Of a stretch of 41,766 bases of DNA, positions 1,307-11,999 are shown piece after piece. Below the pieces are notes generated by a model, which was not told where the DNA came from, did no database searches, and saw nothing but the letters and a program-made list of their open reading frames with translations. Where the stretch lies: IMG/VR virus record IMGVR_UViG_2531839131_000018, one strand, 5' to 3'. Position 1 is the first letter of the stretch, and every line of letters begins with the position of its first letter. The position numbers and the translations under genes are program-made. The DNA is from a virus (lineage: Duplodnaviria; Heunggongvirae; Uroviricota; Caudoviricetes).

Positions 1307-3673
1307 TTAAAAATCAACCGGATTCGGGATCAGTTTTTGCCAGATTGCTGAAACGTATTTTGCCTGGTGACGGGCATCATCCAGCGCATTGTGGCGCACG
1401 CCTTCAAATGGAATAACGATTCTGGCATCAAAGTCGATTGTTTTTCCCAGCTCAACGATTGTGCGTACATCGCGATCGTTGTAGTAACGCCACGGGCAGG
1501 GGATCCCCTGCCGTTCGTATGAACGGCGCAAAATCGTGTTGTCGAAGTTGGCTCCATTTCCCCAAACCTGAACAAAAAATTCACCGGAGTTTGCGTCGAT
1601 AAATTCCCGCAATTGTAACAGTGCATCATCTAACGGGATTTCATCGGTCATAATGGCAGATTGCGCTTCGCGTGATTGCTTAAGCCACCATTTAATGGTG
1701 TCCCGATCAATGACTCCGCCAGCAGTTTCCAGATCGATAGTCTTACTAAATTCCGGTCCCATATCTCCGGTTTGCGGATCGAAGAATATTGCACCTATTG
1801 AGATAATCGGGGCATCAGGATTGTTTCCCATGGTTTCAAGGTCGATCATTAGATGGTCACATGTCCTGCTGGTGGATGCGTCTATATGATGACCGTTCAT
1901 ATTAATTAAGGGATCTGTCACCTCGCCAGTTTCACTATCGCTGGCATGATGCTGATTGCCGCCAGGGTTCTCCTTGTGTGGATGTTCAGCACCTTCCATT
2001 TCCTCCGGATCATTTTCCTGAACTTCAACCTGATTCTCTTCATTGAATGTTTCCTGGTATGTTGCGTCGCCCATCGCCGCGCCACAATCAGGGCAGTTGC
2101 CCCCACCGCTCTGACCGCAGGTGGTGCAGACTTTTTCCGTTTCTTTCTGGTTCTGGTTCACAGAGTCGAGGGTTTCAATCCCCTTAACCCATTTTGGATC
2201 GTTCGGGTCGCTAATCCCTTCAACAAATTCTCCGCGAGAGGCAGCCAGTAATTTGTCTGCATCGACATGATTTTTGGGCGGAATGTTTTTCCGGGCTTCA
2301 TGGAGTTCTGCCCGCAGTTTCTGATATTTCGCATCAACAGAATTTACCTGTGACTGAGCATCCAGCGGCTGCGTGTTCTGATGATGTTCAGTTGCATTCG
2401 GTTCCACTGTTTCAGCCGTTGCCTGTTCATCTGCCATTGCGCCAGATGGTTGTGGTTTTTCTTCATCGTCCTGTTTTCCTTCTTCTGTTACTCGCTGCGG
2501 CATCGGGGCAGAGGAGCGACCGCAGGCAATATCCACGATTTCCGGATCAGGGTTGGCATGATCGGTTTCAGTCAGTACTTTGTTCAGATATTCAGTGACG
2601 TGTGCGGGGATGACCTCGATCCCAATTGGTGCTTCTTTCACGGACGCAACCACGATGGCGCGGGAATAATCCAGCCCGCCAGGCATAGTGATGAATTTGT
2701 CGCGGAAAACAGAAAAGGGTGGTTTATTTTCAGCGATAATTTCCTCAATGCGTTTAGCATGTGCCGGATGAAGGTTATAGATGTCCACGTCCATTGAACG
2801 GGCCAGTACGCCAGTGGCTACATCGCGCGCCAGTGACGTCAGATCGTGGACGAAACCTTCGCCGCGATCGGTGAGGTTCCCGCCGCCAGCATTAGCACCG
2901 GAAGCCGTGCGAGTGATGCGTGAAACACGATTCCCTTTTCGCCATTCTTTTGTCAGAAGACCGCGATCAATGTGTTCGGTATCCAGCCAGGCTGAAATGA
3001 AATTCTTAAATTCATTGGGCTGATGTTTTTTCGTGATAGAGAACACTGCCTTAATTGCATCAGTCAGGCGGAGCAGGGCGGCATTATCCAGAGTTGTCGG
3101 TTCTGCCATGCTGCGTATGGCCAACAGCAGATTCTGGACATAGCTGTTTTCCTGATCCATCTCAAGAGCAGTAATGTGTTTGCGTTGTTCACGGGTGGCA
3201 TGATGCAGGTATTTCCGATCCCCGGCTGCATACGTAAAAATGTGCAGAAGACGCTGTGTGAACCGCAAAGTGGCTACAGAGACTTCGCAATCCTGGCAAT
3301 CCTCATGGGCGTCTGCCTGCGCGTTTTCTTCCTGGCCTCCCGCCAGTTCTTTGGTTTCTTGAGCATTATCCTGGTGGTGAATGTCGTCTGGCGCTGCTCC
3401 CGGTTTTAGTTCCCAGGTCATGGAGTCTTTGCTGAGTTGATAGCGTTCACTCCAGGTAAAATCGATCTCACCTTCAGGGGGAAGGTCATTAACGACAGGA
3501 AAATTTGTGGCAACAGCTTTAAAATAGTTGCTCAGTTTTTTACCTGACTTAACGATCAGGTAGTCCAGAGTGGCACGGGTCGATTCAAAATCATCACTTG
3601 CCCACAGGATGACGTCAGGTTCACCGGATGATTTTTTCGCTTTCCGTAAAAGGAAGAGTGGTTTTGTGCTCAT
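1307..3673 (-). CDS. Large early protein with C-terminal DnaQ-like DEDDh 3'-5' exonuclease domain (788 aa); N-terminal region resembles the non-catalytic part of RecE (from memory)
   Basis: C-terminal motifs IDLETMG (Exo I), [13 protein letters not shown] (Exo II), [13 protein letters not shown] (Exo III, DEDDh); CTTCGQ..CPDCG zinc-ribbon-like motif; acidic low-complexity linkers. N-terminus [21 protein letters not shown] recalled as RecE-like, unverified. Confidence 0.8.
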
Positions 3674-3772
3674 TGTTTTTTAACCTCAACTCAGATTAAA
3701 ATTACTGCGAGTGATGAATGAATGTCCCAGGTTCTTCACTCAGGCCTGCACACTGTGCAGGCTTTCTTTTTT

Positions 3773-4048
3773 TCAGATTTCACCGTTTAATTTCATTGCG
3801 ATCAGGGTTGCCAGAAATCCGGCTTTTTTTTCTGCGGGCAGATTCTTTCCGATGTGAAACAGGCACATTTTTTTGACACCTTCGTGAAGTGTTTTAACGT
3901 TGCCTGATGGACCGTCGATATCAACCACAGTGAATGGGGTTTCTTTATTTTCTGTTTTAATCACGTAGCCAATACGCTTTCCTTCCAGATTAACTTCGTG
4001 AACAATGTCATCAGTAGTTACAACAGTGGCTTCATAACTGGTAATCAT
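3773..4048 (-). CDS. Hypothetical small early protein (91 aa), possibly RacC-like
   Basis: ATG preceded by AAGGAG at 6-nt spacing (reverse complement of 4049-4066); ORF MITSYEATVV... Family assignment is a guess from length and position. Confidence 0.55.
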   Translation of the reverse strand: MITSYEATVVTTDDIVHEVNLEGKRIGYVIKTENKETPFTVVDIDGPSGNVKTLHEGVKKMCLFHIGKNLPAEKKAGFLATLIAMKLNGEI

Positions 4049-4132
4049 GTTTTTCTCCTTAATTAAGGTTGAGCGAATCACTGCCATTGCTGGCATATAA
4101 AAATGAAACCGGATATTTATTACGGTGCTGGT

Positions 4133-4324
4133 TTAAAGCCCTGCCGGGACTTCGTTATTATCCATGCGAATAACTTTATCGACCGGATAACAGTTACCGG
4201 GAATTTTCTGTTCCGCTGCGGCAGCCATGCATTCTTTCATTGAGCCGTATACGCCAGTAACCATGTCAACCGGTTCACCGGAAACAAGAAAAACCGTCAG
4301 AACAAGTGCAAATGTGGTATTCAT
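4133..4324 (-). CDS. Small secreted or membrane-anchored protein with N-terminal signal-like segment (63 aa)
   Basis: MNTTFALVLTVFLVSG hydrophobic N-terminus; its ATG overlaps the stop of the upstream gene (ATGA), indicating translational coupling. Confidence 0.5.
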   Translation of the reverse strand: MNTTFALVLTVFLVSGEPVDMVTGVYGSMKECMAAAAEQKIPGNCYPVDKVIRMDNNEVPAGL

Positions 4325-4509
4325 TGCCAGCATCCTTTTTGCATCAGGCGTAAACGGGCCAGCATTGAAACAATGCATATTTGATTTAATAGCTCCCGTT
4401 CGTGTTTTCTCTTATTAATGGCATCTTCAGTAAATACGGGGTTACTGATTTTGACACCAATTTCAAAACAACCTTCAGACGTATTGACGTTTGGTAATAA
4501 CGTTTCCAT
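4321..4509 (-). CDS. Hypothetical small early protein (62 aa), possibly Kil-like
   Basis: METLLPNVNTSEGC...; GAGGA Shine-Dalgarno 7 nt upstream of ATG; stop overlaps start of downstream gene. Confidence 0.5.
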   Translation of the reverse strand: METLLPNVNTSEGCFEIGVKISNPVFTEDAINKRKHERELLNQICIVSMLARLRLMQKGCWQ

Positions 4510-5091
4510 TATCGCGTCCTCAACAATGAATTTTGTGATGCGGTGCCTGGTGCCTCCAGGTGACGTTAACCAGTTAACAATTAACGCCGGATACAGAGAA
4601 CCCACCCATAAGAACCAATACGGAGGTCAACTAGCCTTTTTAACTGTTCCGCGTGCGCTTAGCCGCATTCACCGCATCACAAAATTCACTTTAAAAAGGG
4701 CGGCAGAGCAGTCACGGAGTAAAACTGATACCGCCAAACGTCACCAGAAAATTGATAACAGAGGGCGTTGCAGCGGAGTTGTCACTTAAGTGTATGGTCA
4801 ACCTGACAACCCGGTGCTTCATCGGGAAGACATGAACCCCCCGCCATACTTACCGCCGCGCCATTTCGCGGAGTGCCACAACCGGAAGCGCACGGTCGAC
4901 GAAAATTTAACGACAGGCTATCTATGAACCAGCTACCTCGCCGTGCGCTTTCGCGTTATGGTCTGACTTTTCAGGGAAATATCCTTTCAGTAAACTGTCA
5001 GTTCCGGATGCTCACCCGTGTCCGGCGCACGCACTCCACCTCACCCGTGGAGAACTCCTTAATTACCAACCTTAGCTTCGTTGGTTAGCTA

Positions 5092-5310
5092 TTAACGCGG
5101 GTATGTAATCATTCTGGCAATGCTTAATGCCGCTGCTTTTTCCAGCCTGGTGATATCCTGCTCCAGAGCGGACAGATTTTCAGCCTGCTTAGCCCTGGCT
5201 TCATTGGCCCATTTCAGATCCTGCGCTGCATTAATTTTCTGGCGCATCCACTCATAAAGTTCATCATCGGTATAGTCTGGCGCGATGATGACGGGTTCTC
5301 GTTTCTGCAT
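5092..5310 (-). CDS. Hypothetical small early protein (72 aa)
   Basis: MQKREPVIIAPDYTDDELYEWMRQ...; AAGGAG Shine-Dalgarno immediately upstream of the ATG. The same frame stays open upstream to 5907 but the internal start is better supported. Confidence 0.55.
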   Translation of the reverse strand: MQKREPVIIAPDYTDDELYEWMRQKINAAQDLKWANEARAKQAENLSALEQDITRLEKAAALSIARMITYPR

Positions 5311-5436
5311 GTCGACTCCTTGTGGTTCGTGTTGCCTGCTTTTAACCACATCAGGCGAGGTGGTATCCTGAAAGCCGACCAAAGCTTTACGGATAAATAA
5401 GTTATGTTGCAACCACCAATAAATCCGCTTAAAAAT

Positions 5437-5724
5437 ATGAAAATTGATTACTGGTATAAAGCACTTACAGTTGTTGGTGCTGCGTTGTTTGTCTTTAATG
5501 GAACATCTTTTTTTGACAGATACCCCGTTGTTCCACTGGCTTTTTTGTCCTCCGGTATTTTCTTCACTGGCCTTGGAGAGTGGATCAATCACCCTCTCAG
5601 AGTGAGATTTATTGGTCCCGGAGCCGTTGCCCGGGGGCATAACCGTTCTCCGTGCACACTCGGCATTATCTTCGATATATTGGGTGTCTGCCTGATTGTT
5701 ACAGGAGTCGTCAAATTCTTCTGA
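5437..5724 (+). CDS. Possible small membrane protein (about 95 aa), opposite strand to surrounding early genes; SieB-like superinfection-exclusion role is speculative
   Basis: Two hydrophobic helix-like segments (ALTVVGAALFVF, SSGIFFTGLGEW). No good Shine-Dalgarno; conflicts with an antisense ORF on the minus strand, so very uncertain. Confidence 0.25.
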   Translation: MKIDYWYKALTVVGAALFVFNGTSFFDRYPVVPLAFLSSGIFFTGLGEWINHPLRVRFIGPGAVARGHNRSPCTLGIIFDILGVCLIVTGVVKFF

Positions 5725-6005
5725 AGAGAATCCACACACAGGGCATACAACCGGAATACGGCAAATGATTTCACCCGGCTCGATGTGTGGGTACTCGCCA
5801 TCAATTTTTTGTTGCTCCCGTATGCCCATGTTGACCTCATTTCCCCTTAACGCCGGGGTAGCGGAACAAAAACCTGCTGCATAGTTAAAGTTGAACCCTG
5901 CCGTCATGTTCTTACGCCTCGGGCTGGCTACTTAACCCCTGACCACTGCCTGGTAACTCGAAGTATTGCCCGGCGTTCTGTGGGGCGGGGTGGGTTGGTG
6001 AACAC

Positions 6006-6035
6006 ATCATAAAACACACAAAATGTGTTAGTCAA
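6006..6035 (-). promoter_or_regulatory. Candidate leftward early promoter (PL-like) overlapping palindromic operator-like sites
   Basis: On the minus strand TTGACT (reverse complement of 6030-6035), 18-nt spacer, TATGAT (reverse complement of 6006-6011); palindromes AACACAT..ATGTGTT (6001-6029) and ACAC-A7-GTGT (6035-6049) overlap it. Confidence 0.4.
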
Positions 6036-6057
6036 CACAAAAAAAGTGTATAAAGGG

Positions 6058-6097: not shown

Positions 6098-6388
6098 TTA
6101 TTCGCTGTTACTGGGATATTGTTGGCGAGCATGTGCCACGCTTACAATTTCAATGCTTGAGGCAGCTACTTTGTACAGTATTATGTAGTTAGGGTGAGCC
6201 ACTATCTCTCTCAATCCAGAAACCCGTTCGCTTGGCGGATATAGGTACGGATGCTCAGATAGGGGTAGTACAGATGTTTCAATGCGTATTTTTAGTCTGC
6301 GCGCTGCCGGAGGGTTCTCCTTGGCGATGTAAGTTATGATCTGACGCAAATCATCGCGAGCAGACGGTAACCATAATATGGGCAGCAT
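6098..6388 (-). CDS. parE: ParE/RelE-superfamily type II toxin (96 aa)
   Basis: MLPILWLPSARDDLRQIITYIAKENPPAARRLKIRIETSVLPLSEHPYLY..GLREIVAHPNYIILYKV..IEIVSVAHARQ matches the ParE pattern; start overlaps antitoxin stop by 1 nt. Confidence 0.8.
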   Translation of the reverse strand: MLPILWLPSARDDLRQIITYIAKENPPAARRLKIRIETSVLPLSEHPYLYPPSERVSGLREIVAHPNYIILYKVAASSIEIVSVAHARQQYPSNSE

Positions 6389-6579
6389 TACACGCTCTCG
6401 CTTTCCGTGGCAATTTGATTGATGATTTTTTCCATTTTTGCCATTACTTCGTCGTGCGGAATTGCCGGGCGTGGATCTGCCAAACTTGCTGCAACCTTGG
6501 CGCGCAACCATTCGTTATAGCTGTTTTCTTGCTCGATAGTTTCAAATTCTGAGACTATTGGCGAAAGAACCGTGTTCAT
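6388..6579 (-). CDS. Small antitoxin (63 aa), PaaA2-like by size and position
   Basis: 63-aa acidic ORF directly upstream of and overlapping the ParE-like gene; GAGAGG Shine-Dalgarno 6 nt upstream. Resemblance to PaaA2 of the PaaR2-PaaA2-ParE2 module is from memory. Confidence 0.7.
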   Translation of the reverse strand: MNTVLSPIVSEFETIEQENSYNEWLRAKVAASLADPRPAIPHDEVMAKMEKIINQIATESESV

Positions 6580-6605
6580 AATATACCTCTCCCGTATGGT
6601 TGTGA

Positions 6606-7004
6606 TTATGCTCGACGTCCTTTTTGAGCGGCGAGCCATCTTGCAACGGTGCGATCCATTGATTCTTTTTTGTCTTTCATGTCCTTAAGCATTTGTTCTT
6701 GCTCTTCTTCTGGGAACGCCCCAAATGTTTGAAGTAAATCTCTTTGGCGCGGACCTATTTTCATTGAGTCAGGCACTACAACCTGTTCATCCTCGCTCGG
6801 AGGAAGCATGAACCAAAAAATAGGTCGTGCGGTTATTTGTGAAAGTCGATCTAAATTGTCAGGATTTGGACTAACCAAGCCCGCAGCCCATCGCTGCACT
6901 GTTTGTTGCGACACCCCAACTAATTTCCCAAGCTCCGCTTGACTCCAGCCTGTTTCAGACAAGAGTTTCTTTATTCTATATGCAGTGATCTCGAGTGTTT
7001 TCAT
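6606..7004 (-). CDS. HTH (XRE/Cro-CI family) repressor, RacR/PaaR2-like; likely prophage immunity repressor (132 aa)
   Basis: HTH motif SQAELGKLVGVSQQTVQRWAAG; divergent from a Cro-like gene; operator-like palindromes in the 7005-7110 intergenic region; co-oriented with the downstream toxin pair. Confidence 0.75.
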   Translation of the reverse strand: MKTLEITAYRIKKLLSETGWSQAELGKLVGVSQQTVQRWAAGLVSPNPDNLDRLSQITARPIFWFMLPPSEDEQVVVPDSMKIGPRQRDLLQTFGAFPEEEQEQMLKDMKDKKESMDRTVARWLAAQKGRRA

Positions 7005-7040
7005 ACCAACAATTCTACTCAAAAAATGAGTAATACGCGA

Positions 7041-7080
7041 CACACAAAAAACGAGTTTACACATACACGTTTTTTGTGTA
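7041..7080. promoter_or_regulatory. Operator-like inverted repeat in the divergent repressor/cro intergenic region
   Basis: ACACAAAAAACG (7042-7053) and CGTTTTTTGTGT (7068-7079) are near-perfect reverse complements; candidate -35 TTTACA at 7056-7061 lies between them. Confidence 0.45.
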
Positions 7081-11632: not shown

Positions 11633-11843
11633 AAACGGTTTGCAGTGAAAGGGGAGTTAAGTAGAATTGCTGCGGGTGCTTGAGGCTATCTGTCTCAGGC
11701 ATGAACACCAAAAGGCAGATAGAGAAAAGCCCCAGTTAACATTACGCGTCCTGCAAGACGCTTAACATTAATCTGAGGCCCAATCTATGTCTCACAAATG
11801 TAGGTTAGCCTCTTACGTGCCGAAAGGCAAGGAGAAGCAGGCT

Positions 11844-11999
11844 ATGAAGCAGCAAAAGGCGATGTTAATCGCCCTTATCGTCATCTGTTTAACCGTCATA
11901 GTGACGGCACTGGTAACGAGGAAAGACCTCTGCGAGGTACGAATCCGAACCGGCCAGACGGAGGTCGCTGTCTTCACAGCTTACGAACCTGAGGAGTAA
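11844..11999 (+). CDS. hok: Hok/Gef-family type I toxin (51 aa), closest to HokD/RelF from memory
   Basis: MKQQKAMLIALIVICLTVIVTALVTRKDLCEVRIRTGQTEVAVFTAYEPEE shows the Hok signature (transmembrane segment, conserved Cys, C-terminal EVAVF..YE); an in-frame upstream ATG at 11787 gives a mok-like extension. Confidence 0.85.
   Translation: MKQQKAMLIALIVICLTVIVTALVTRKDLCEVRIRTGQTEVAVFTAYEPEE

Follow-up and report, generated by a model that had tools for sequence, protein, structure and literature searches.

The window analysed here is a 41.8-kb stretch of DNA from a tailed virus (Caudoviricetes; IMG/VR record IMGVR_UViG_2531839131_000018), and all positions below are given in its numbering. Our subject is a block of small genes on its minus strand, between positions 3773 and 5310, which we identify, in the order of transcription, as ydfC, the small RNA gene dicF, dicB, ydfD and racC. 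An earlier note on this DNA, made without database searches, had described the block as a single run of four small, translationally coupled minus-strand open reading frames (ORFs) of 91, 63, 62 and 72 amino acids (aa), lying in an early-left operon between the repressor side and an exonuclease gene. This placement was borne out, and all four ORFs are present at these lengths (3773-4048, 4133-4324, 4321-4509 and 5092-5310, respectively). The strong ribosome-binding sites and the ATGA coupling described for them could also be read: Shine-Dalgarno sequences AAGGAG, AGGAG and GAGGA precede the 91-, 72- and 62-aa ORFs, and the 63-aa ORF begins within the stop codon that ends the 62-aa ORF, as an ATGA overlap at 4321-4324. 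However, coupling is limited to this pair (dicB and ydfD). The block is not a single coupled run: the 72-aa ORF is separated from the 62-aa ORF by 582 nt, the 63-aa ORF from the 91-aa ORF by 84 nt, and the latter from the exonuclease gene by 99 nt. Longer versions starting at upstream codons (107, 81 and 94 aa) were rejected, as the lengths annotated in E. coli K-12, the ribosome-binding sites and the boundaries of the matching hidden Markov models (HMMs) all fit the shorter forms.

HMM searches with the four ORF products gave E-values from 3.7e-23 to 1.5e-59, far past chance, and the description of these proteins as having no recognisable domains did not hold, since the matches to DicB (PF05358 and NF049927), DUF1482 (PF07358) and NF007306 all exceed curated cut-offs. 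The 62-aa ORF (4321-4509, minus strand) is dicB, the gene of a cell-division inhibitor. Its product is identical to K-12 DicB at 56 of 62 residues (92% identity at the DNA level) and matches PF05358 with 131.5 bits (cut-off 27; E = 8.8e-39) over residues 1-62 of 62, and NF049927 with 134.4 bits against a cut-off of 100. K-12 DicB binds MinC and requires ZipA for the division block, and it also stops ManYZ-dependent entry of phage DNA (PMC6832061). The 63-aa ORF (4133-4324, minus strand) is ydfD, encoding a DUF1482 lysis protein (PF07358, 81.6 bits, cut-off 25, E = 3.7e-23) identical to K-12 YdfD at 46 of 63 residues, the DNA identity being 80%. This is the product for which a signal-like N-terminus had been noticed, and it is indeed hydrophobic at that end, with a mean Kyte-Doolittle value of 2.43 for residues 4-15 and -0.14 for the remainder. 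The K-12 protein lyses cells, is reported to bind and inhibit IspG, and is prevented from causing lysis by co-expression of DicB (PMC8835842).

The 91-aa ORF (3773-4048, minus strand), directly upstream of an exonuclease VIII-type gene, is racC. It matches NF007306 over its full length (198.1 bits, cut-off 171), and 86 of its 91 residues are identical to those of K-12 RacC; of the codon differences between the two genes, 11 are synonymous and 5 are non-synonymous. RacC is the published blocker of the retron toxin RcaT, the strongest found against RcaT of retron-Sen2, and with recE, its neighbour, it makes up a pair of blocker and trigger (bioRxiv 10.1101/2020.06.22.160242). A possible likeness to RacC, KilR and YdaE of the Rac prophage had been suggested; pairwise alignment showed it to be right for RacC, while for the other two it found noise. 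K-12 KilR and YdaE gave E-values of at least 0.19 by tblastn over the whole window and pairwise alignment scores of 19-24. Substitutions with respect to K-12 fall mostly at third codon positions (14 of 18 in racC, 9 of 15 in dicB and 20 of 38 in ydfD), which indicates that these ORFs are under coding constraint.

The 72-aa ORF (5092-5310, minus strand) is ydfC, which adjoins the dicF spacer on its upstream side. It differs from the K-12 gene at 4 nt, and the products are identical at 71 of 72 residues. The protein matches phrog_1744 (E = 1.9e-39), its orthologues are named 'protein YdfC' in RefSeq, and its homologues are restricted to Escherichia. An AlphaFold2 model built from 20 sequences (predicted local distance difference test score, pLDDT, 87) consists of an extended N-terminal peptide followed by a single long helix spanning residues 15-69, and the 11 invariant columns of the alignment all lie in residues 1-25, mostly within the N-terminal peptide. 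Searches for YdfC turned up no Pfam family, no solved relative and no published function in the literature. Our guess, from the model, is that YdfC might be a small, helical adaptor protein that would bind a host or phage partner through its invariant N-terminal peptide. The structure-based search that the earlier note had proposed likewise returned no solved relatives for DicB or YdfD, and for RacC it yielded a weak and unconvincing match alone.

The 582-nt untranslated gap between ydfC (5092) and dicB (4509) contains, on the operon strand, the small RNA DicF (4698-4750), which the ORF-based first reading had missed. It is identical to K-12 dicF at 53 of 53 nucleotides. An Rfam scan of the window detected it as RF00039 at 4698-4749 on the minus strand, with 76.7 bits (gathering score 48), E = 2.4e-15 and model positions 1-52 of 52 covered. 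After its 3' stem-loop comes the T run TTTTT, at 4693-4697. Nucleotides 25-36 of DicF pair at 11 of 12 positions with nucleotides -12 to -1 of ftsZ (CGGAGAGAAACU), the Shine-Dalgarno region, K-12 ftsZ being used as a proxy for that of the host. DicF is described to repress translation of ftsZ by base-pairing, and to act on other mRNAs as well (PMC5069750). In K-12, where the dicBF operon is under DicA repression at dicBp, RNase III gives a 190-nt DicF species and RNase E a 53-nt species from the polycistronic RNA (PMC10448788).

The spacers that flank DicF are conserved too. The 341-nt spacer between ydfC and dicF (4751-5091, minus strand), a putative DicF precursor region, is identical to K-12 in 322 of 343 aligned columns, which makes it more conserved than dicB or ydfD, and its fold is somewhat more stable than those of shuffled sequences (z = -2.63). 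Both its conservation and its fold fit the known role as a processed precursor region. The spacer between dicF and dicB (4510-4697, minus strand), which constitutes the dicB leader, is identical to K-12 in 162 of 188 columns, with a 14-nt indel, and has 82% identity to the leader that precedes kilR in the Rac prophage; the latter adjoins the annotated small RNA kilS. Within this spacer, at 4532-4686 on the minus strand, we also observed a sub-threshold Rfam match to STnc100 (35.3 bits, gathering score 47, E = 2.3e-5). A 123-aa ORF on the plus strand (4418-4789), antisense to dicB and dicF, was considered spurious, having no family match and containing the 14-nt indel with respect to K-12.

A predicted sigma-70 promoter of the PL type lies upstream of the block at 6035-6006 on the minus strand (TTGACT, 18 nt, TATGAT; 10/12 in a consensus scan), just past the terminator hairpin and T run of a parE gene and just before a conserved leader. 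From its sequence we predict that it drives the early-left, dicBF-type operon. Two 15-bp operator-like palindromes accompany it, one in the promoter spacer (6014-6028) and one abutting the -35 hexamer (6035-6049), and three more copies lie between the repressor and cro-like genes, at 7017-7031, 7042-7056 and 7065-7079. The palindrome, ACACAAAAAANGTGT, with the core ACAC-N7-GTGT, occurs at five sites in the 41.8 kb when up to 2 mismatches are allowed, while 0.37 are expected and none of 100 shuffles reaches five. On sequence grounds we read the two sites at the promoter, in the order given, as probable OL1 and OL2 operators and the three between the repressor and cro-like genes as OR1 to OR3. 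No third OL site was found even at 3 mismatches.

The genes beyond the promoter define the immunity region (6098-7079), which is of the type found in CP-933P of E. coli O157:H7 (paaR2-paaA2-parE2, ydaS-ydaT, PL933P). A PaaR2-like helix-turn-helix (HTH) repressor gene (6606-7010; HTH_3, no peptidase domain) is followed by a PaaA2-type antitoxin gene (6388-6639) and a ParE toxin gene (6098-6391) that ends at the hairpin and T run mentioned above; YdaS-like and YdaT-like genes are divergent from the repressor gene, and the PL-type promoter with its repressor operators comes past parE. For CP-933P, the layout PaaR2-PaaA2-ParE2 followed by PL with OL sites has been shown experimentally, and the reported operator half-site, GTTTAGTAA, is unlike the palindrome of the window (PMC8630535). 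This difference in the operator suggests that immunity specificity differs between the two phages. Three OL sites are reported for CP-933P, and two were found in the window.

The 5' leader of the operon (170 nt, 5830-5999, minus strand) is 90% identical to that of Rac, upstream of ydaG (154 nt), 96% identical to that of the E. coli D10 prophage and, over its last 42 nt, 95% identical to that of Qin, upstream of ydfA. This last portion includes the ribosome-binding site and the ATG of ydfA. A Put-like antiterminator RNA in the leader (5830-6000) was considered and rejected, as the leader folds like shuffled sequences (z = -0.02); a literature search on such an RNA yielded nothing relevant.

The stretch separating the leader from ydfC carries a gene on the opposite strand (5404-5724, plus strand) that encodes a 106-aa membrane protein of an uncharacterised family with 56 homologues. 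The motifs DYWYKA and GEWINHP are invariant across the homologues, and the structural model (pLDDT 85.7) has three predicted helices plus a hairpin. Pfam, PHROG, NCBIfam and PADLOC contain no match to the protein, and its model gave no hit at E <= 0.001 in the PDB or BFVD, the best values being 0.67 and 0.015, respectively, with TM-scores below 0.5. Nor did a 25-nt exact-pattern scan of genome contigs find the gene, or megablast find a match for 5311-5826 of the window in 5426 E. coli genomes. The gene occurs in several otherwise different prophages, from E. coli, Yersinia and metagenomes, on that side of the repressor gene where the early-left operon lies and on the strand opposite to the operon, a placement of the sort that sieB has in Rac. 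It is outside the coding set of the operon, whose transcript must pass through it, and we consider its product a candidate lysogen-expressed exclusion or defence protein.

A reading frame antisense to this gene is open. In codon register with it, the antisense frame is free of stops in 84 of the 86 loci analysed, stops being present in most distant homologues. In the window the frame starts at ATG 5829, with the ribosome-binding site and start of K-12 ydfA, and runs without a stop into ydfC in frame, making an ORF of 245 aa; the open frame spans 5092-5907 on the minus strand, chiefly 5311-5829. In the common E. coli form, seen in about 70 IMG/VR E. coli loci, the first 34 codons of ydfB are joined to the antisense frame in the same register. 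We rejected the antisense strand as the real gene in the overlap, since the ratio of non-synonymous to synonymous substitution rates (dN/dS) and codon-position counts favour the plus-strand gene. In the approximately 16 codons past the plus-strand stop, however (conserved motif IPxxCPxCGF), among homologues whose membrane proteins are 54-88% identical, variation falls mainly at third positions of the minus frame. A stop-free antisense register is in itself not rare in this phage, occurring in 25% of 107-codon windows across its genes, which makes the antisense-frame signal a modest one. We consider it unlikely that the minus frame from 5829 is really translated through the membrane-protein gene into ydfC, retaining ribosomes on the early-left transcript. 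If it were, a convergent 'moron' gene could be tolerated without Rho-dependent polarity on ydfC, dicF and dicB, and a 245-aa YdfC fusion protein would arise as a by-product.

Downstream of racC, the exonuclease gene (1307-3673, minus strand, 788 aa) encodes a RecE-like N-terminal part joined to an Rv2179c-like DEDD 3'-5' exonuclease C-terminus. Pfam assigns residues 2-182 to Exonuc_VIII and residues 607-778 to the Rv2179c-like family, and the NCBIfam exonuclease VIII model aligns over its positions 1-603 of 877 only, under the cut-off. An excisionase-like gene (989-1240) comes directly after, with no recT. Between racC and the exonuclease gene, at 3742-3774, there is a 10-bp GC-rich hairpin followed on the plus strand by TCTTTTTTTC, an order that points to a terminator for plus-strand (antisense) transcription and not for the operon. 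The hairpin falls within the stretch 3377-4097, which is 90.6% identical to Rac.

Comparison with K-12 divides the block in two. Over 5326-4063, which takes in ydfC to ydfD with a little DNA on either side, the window aligns with Qin in a single blastn piece, 90.8% identical, and it shares with the Qin dicBF operon (ydfA-ydfB-ydfC-dicF-dicB-ydfD-ydfE) the order ydfC, 341-nt spacer, dicF, spacer, dicB, ydfD, together with the ATGA overlap. From upstream of racC into recE (4097-3377) it aligns with Rac at 90.6% identity. The mosaic joint is located by the overlap of these two stretches, at 4063-4097. The window differs from Qin in lacking ydfA and ydfB, in place of which it has the opposite-strand membrane-protein gene; in having racC between ydfD and the exonuclease gene; in having this last gene intact, while K-12 ydfE is cut by IS2; and in having a PaaR2-like repressor with PaaA2 and ParE genes and its own ACAC-N7-GTGT palindrome instead of DicA. 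A tblastn search of the window with YdfA, YdfB and DicA gave no match.

The K-12 Rac early-left operon (ydaG-ydaF-[sieB]-kilS-kilR-ydaE-racC-recE-recT) resembles the window in its promoter-proximal leader, in the leader of kilR, in RacC, and in the DNA that starts upstream of racC and reaches into the exonuclease gene, 87-91% identical over two stretches. Like the window, the Rac operon has a membrane-protein gene (sieB) set within it on the opposite strand. In the window, however, kilR and ydaE are replaced by dicB and ydfD, the C-terminal nuclease domain of RecE is replaced by the Rv2179c-like 3'-5' exonuclease domain, and recT is absent. Just 2 of 5426 complete E. coli genomes span the junction between ydfD and racC (3900-4300), though both halves are common. 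The core block matches 4763 of these 5426 genomes, at a median of 2 places per genome, and 63 phage records, including Tritos, where DicF is annotated, and vB_EcoS-813R8. The best E. coli matches are annotated in RefSeq as ydfC, dicB and DUF1482/ydfD.

Three further features of the window are recorded here. On the plus strand, 11674-11999 contains the sok antitoxin RNA (Rfam RF01794, 120.1 bits), overlapping the start of a 70-aa ORF with a hydrophobic core (11787-11999); we take this to be a locus resembling the hok/sok type I toxin-antitoxin systems. Two phage-borne tRNA genes, tRNA-Met (CAT) and tRNA-Arg (TCT), lie at 17042-17291 on the plus strand. Finally, at 36305-39797 on the same strand, the tail-tip protein J seems to be divided over two ORFs that overlap (36305-38035 and 37947-39797), with J domains in each, which may reflect a frameshift, a sequencing error or a pseudogene.

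The identities and order of the genes and of the RNA, the coupling of dicB to ydfD, and the promoter-like and operator-like sites can be read directly on this DNA. Taken together, they make it very probable that this region belongs to a lambda-like Escherichia prophage and forms the promoter-distal part of its early-left operon, which is of the dicBF type, Qin-like from ydfC to ydfD and Rac-like from racC to the start of the exonuclease gene. Several observations weigh against this reading. The operon lacks ydfA and ydfB; the search for OL-type operators found two, as against the three reported for K-12 and CP-933P; and the convergent gene between the promoter and ydfC could attenuate transcription. 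RecE is the published partner of RacC, and because the nuclease encoded here differs from it in the catalytic domain, the pairing of blocker and trigger may not apply to this copy. In the DicF pairing, K-12 ftsZ served as a proxy for that of the host, and the energy of the whole-molecule duplex of DicF with ftsZ is matched by 65 of 500 shuffled DicF sequences and has no discriminating value. Lastly, the activities assigned to DicB, DicF, YdfD and RacC come from work on their K-12 homologues, and YdfD here is just 73% identical to the protein whose activity was assayed.

Two other explanations were weighed. The earlier note saw in the block four uncharacterised, domain-less small early proteins, possibly with new kil, host-shutoff or anti-defence functions, and it took homology to well-characterised proteins of unrelated function as what would refute this. 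The homology searches did find well-characterised proteins, which removes the novelty, and their functions are related to those proposed, not unrelated. The functional guess was thus correct in kind, if the K-12 activities hold (DicB and DicF on division, YdfD in lysis, RacC against a defence system), and mistaken in taking the genes as unrecognisable. For the idea of four uncharacterised proteins speak the lack of a Pfam family, a solved relative or a published function for YdfC, the lack of a PADLOC model for any of the four products, and the label 'unknown function' that PHROGs gives to all four families. However, K-12 has counterparts of published activity for three of the four, at 73-95% identity; YdfC, the remaining one, is a gene already named in K-12; and DicB and DUF1482 are Pfam families. 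We give this idea very little credence as a whole: by the family and sequence matches it is refuted for DicB, YdfD and RacC, and it stands for YdfC.

Least probable of all is that the block is a decaying remnant of a cryptic prophage whose ORFs and RNA are no longer functional, an idea suggested by the defective state of Qin, which holds the best-studied copy, and by the seemingly split gene J, but opposed by the fact that all ORFs retain exactly their K-12 lengths as well as the start codons and ribosome-binding sites, by the bias of substitutions to third codon positions, by a DicF unchanged with respect to K-12, by the intact exonuclease gene (cut by IS2 in K-12 ydfE), by near-identical blocks in records of sequenced phages (Tritos and vB_EcoS-813R8 among them), and by the presence in the window of Q, terminase, portal, capsid, tape-measure and tail genes, which make it look like a nearly complete lambda-like phage and not a remnant.

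If the dicBF-type operon works as its K-12 counterparts do, its course after induction would be the following. Release of the repressor (6606-7010) from the two PL-like operators would allow leftward transcription from 6035-6006, which would cross the leader, the antisense strand of the embedded membrane-protein gene and ydfC, and then the 341-nt spacer and DicF. Cleavage by RNase III as well as by RNase E, along with the terminator-like hairpin at the 3' end, would release the 53-nt DicF as in K-12, and its pairing with the ribosome-binding site of ftsZ would lower FtsZ synthesis. Read-through transcripts would yield DicB, which would bind MinC and bring it to the Z ring via ZipA, stopping division, and which may additionally block ManYZ-dependent DNA entry of other phages. 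YdfD, translationally coupled to DicB, would be a membrane-anchored lysis protein and, from the report on K-12, an IspG inhibitor, its lytic action being restrained during the division block. RacC, coming next, might neutralise RcaT-type retron toxins, and the exonuclease, excisionase and integrase genes would be transcribed last.

In lambda, kil is an early-left gene of the pL operon that blocks host division after induction. The module described here would share with it this position in the operon and this role as an early-left division blocker. It has no sequence relationship to kil, and its action would differ as well, with DicB acting via MinC and ZipA and a small RNA acting in addition on ftsZ.

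The block is an already known dicBF-type module followed by racC, with no novelty in it. For annotation, named genes replace what were four unknown small ORFs, and a small RNA gene, invisible to an ORF-based reading, is added to them. The traits specific to this copy are modest: the rare joint between ydfD and racC, the location of RacC beside a nuclease with a non-RecE catalytic domain, and the membrane-protein gene replacing ydfA and ydfB. Biologically, the window holds one more copy of a module present in most E. coli genomes which, by analogy with K-12, would on induction stop host division, make lysis possible, exclude some other phages and counter retron defence.

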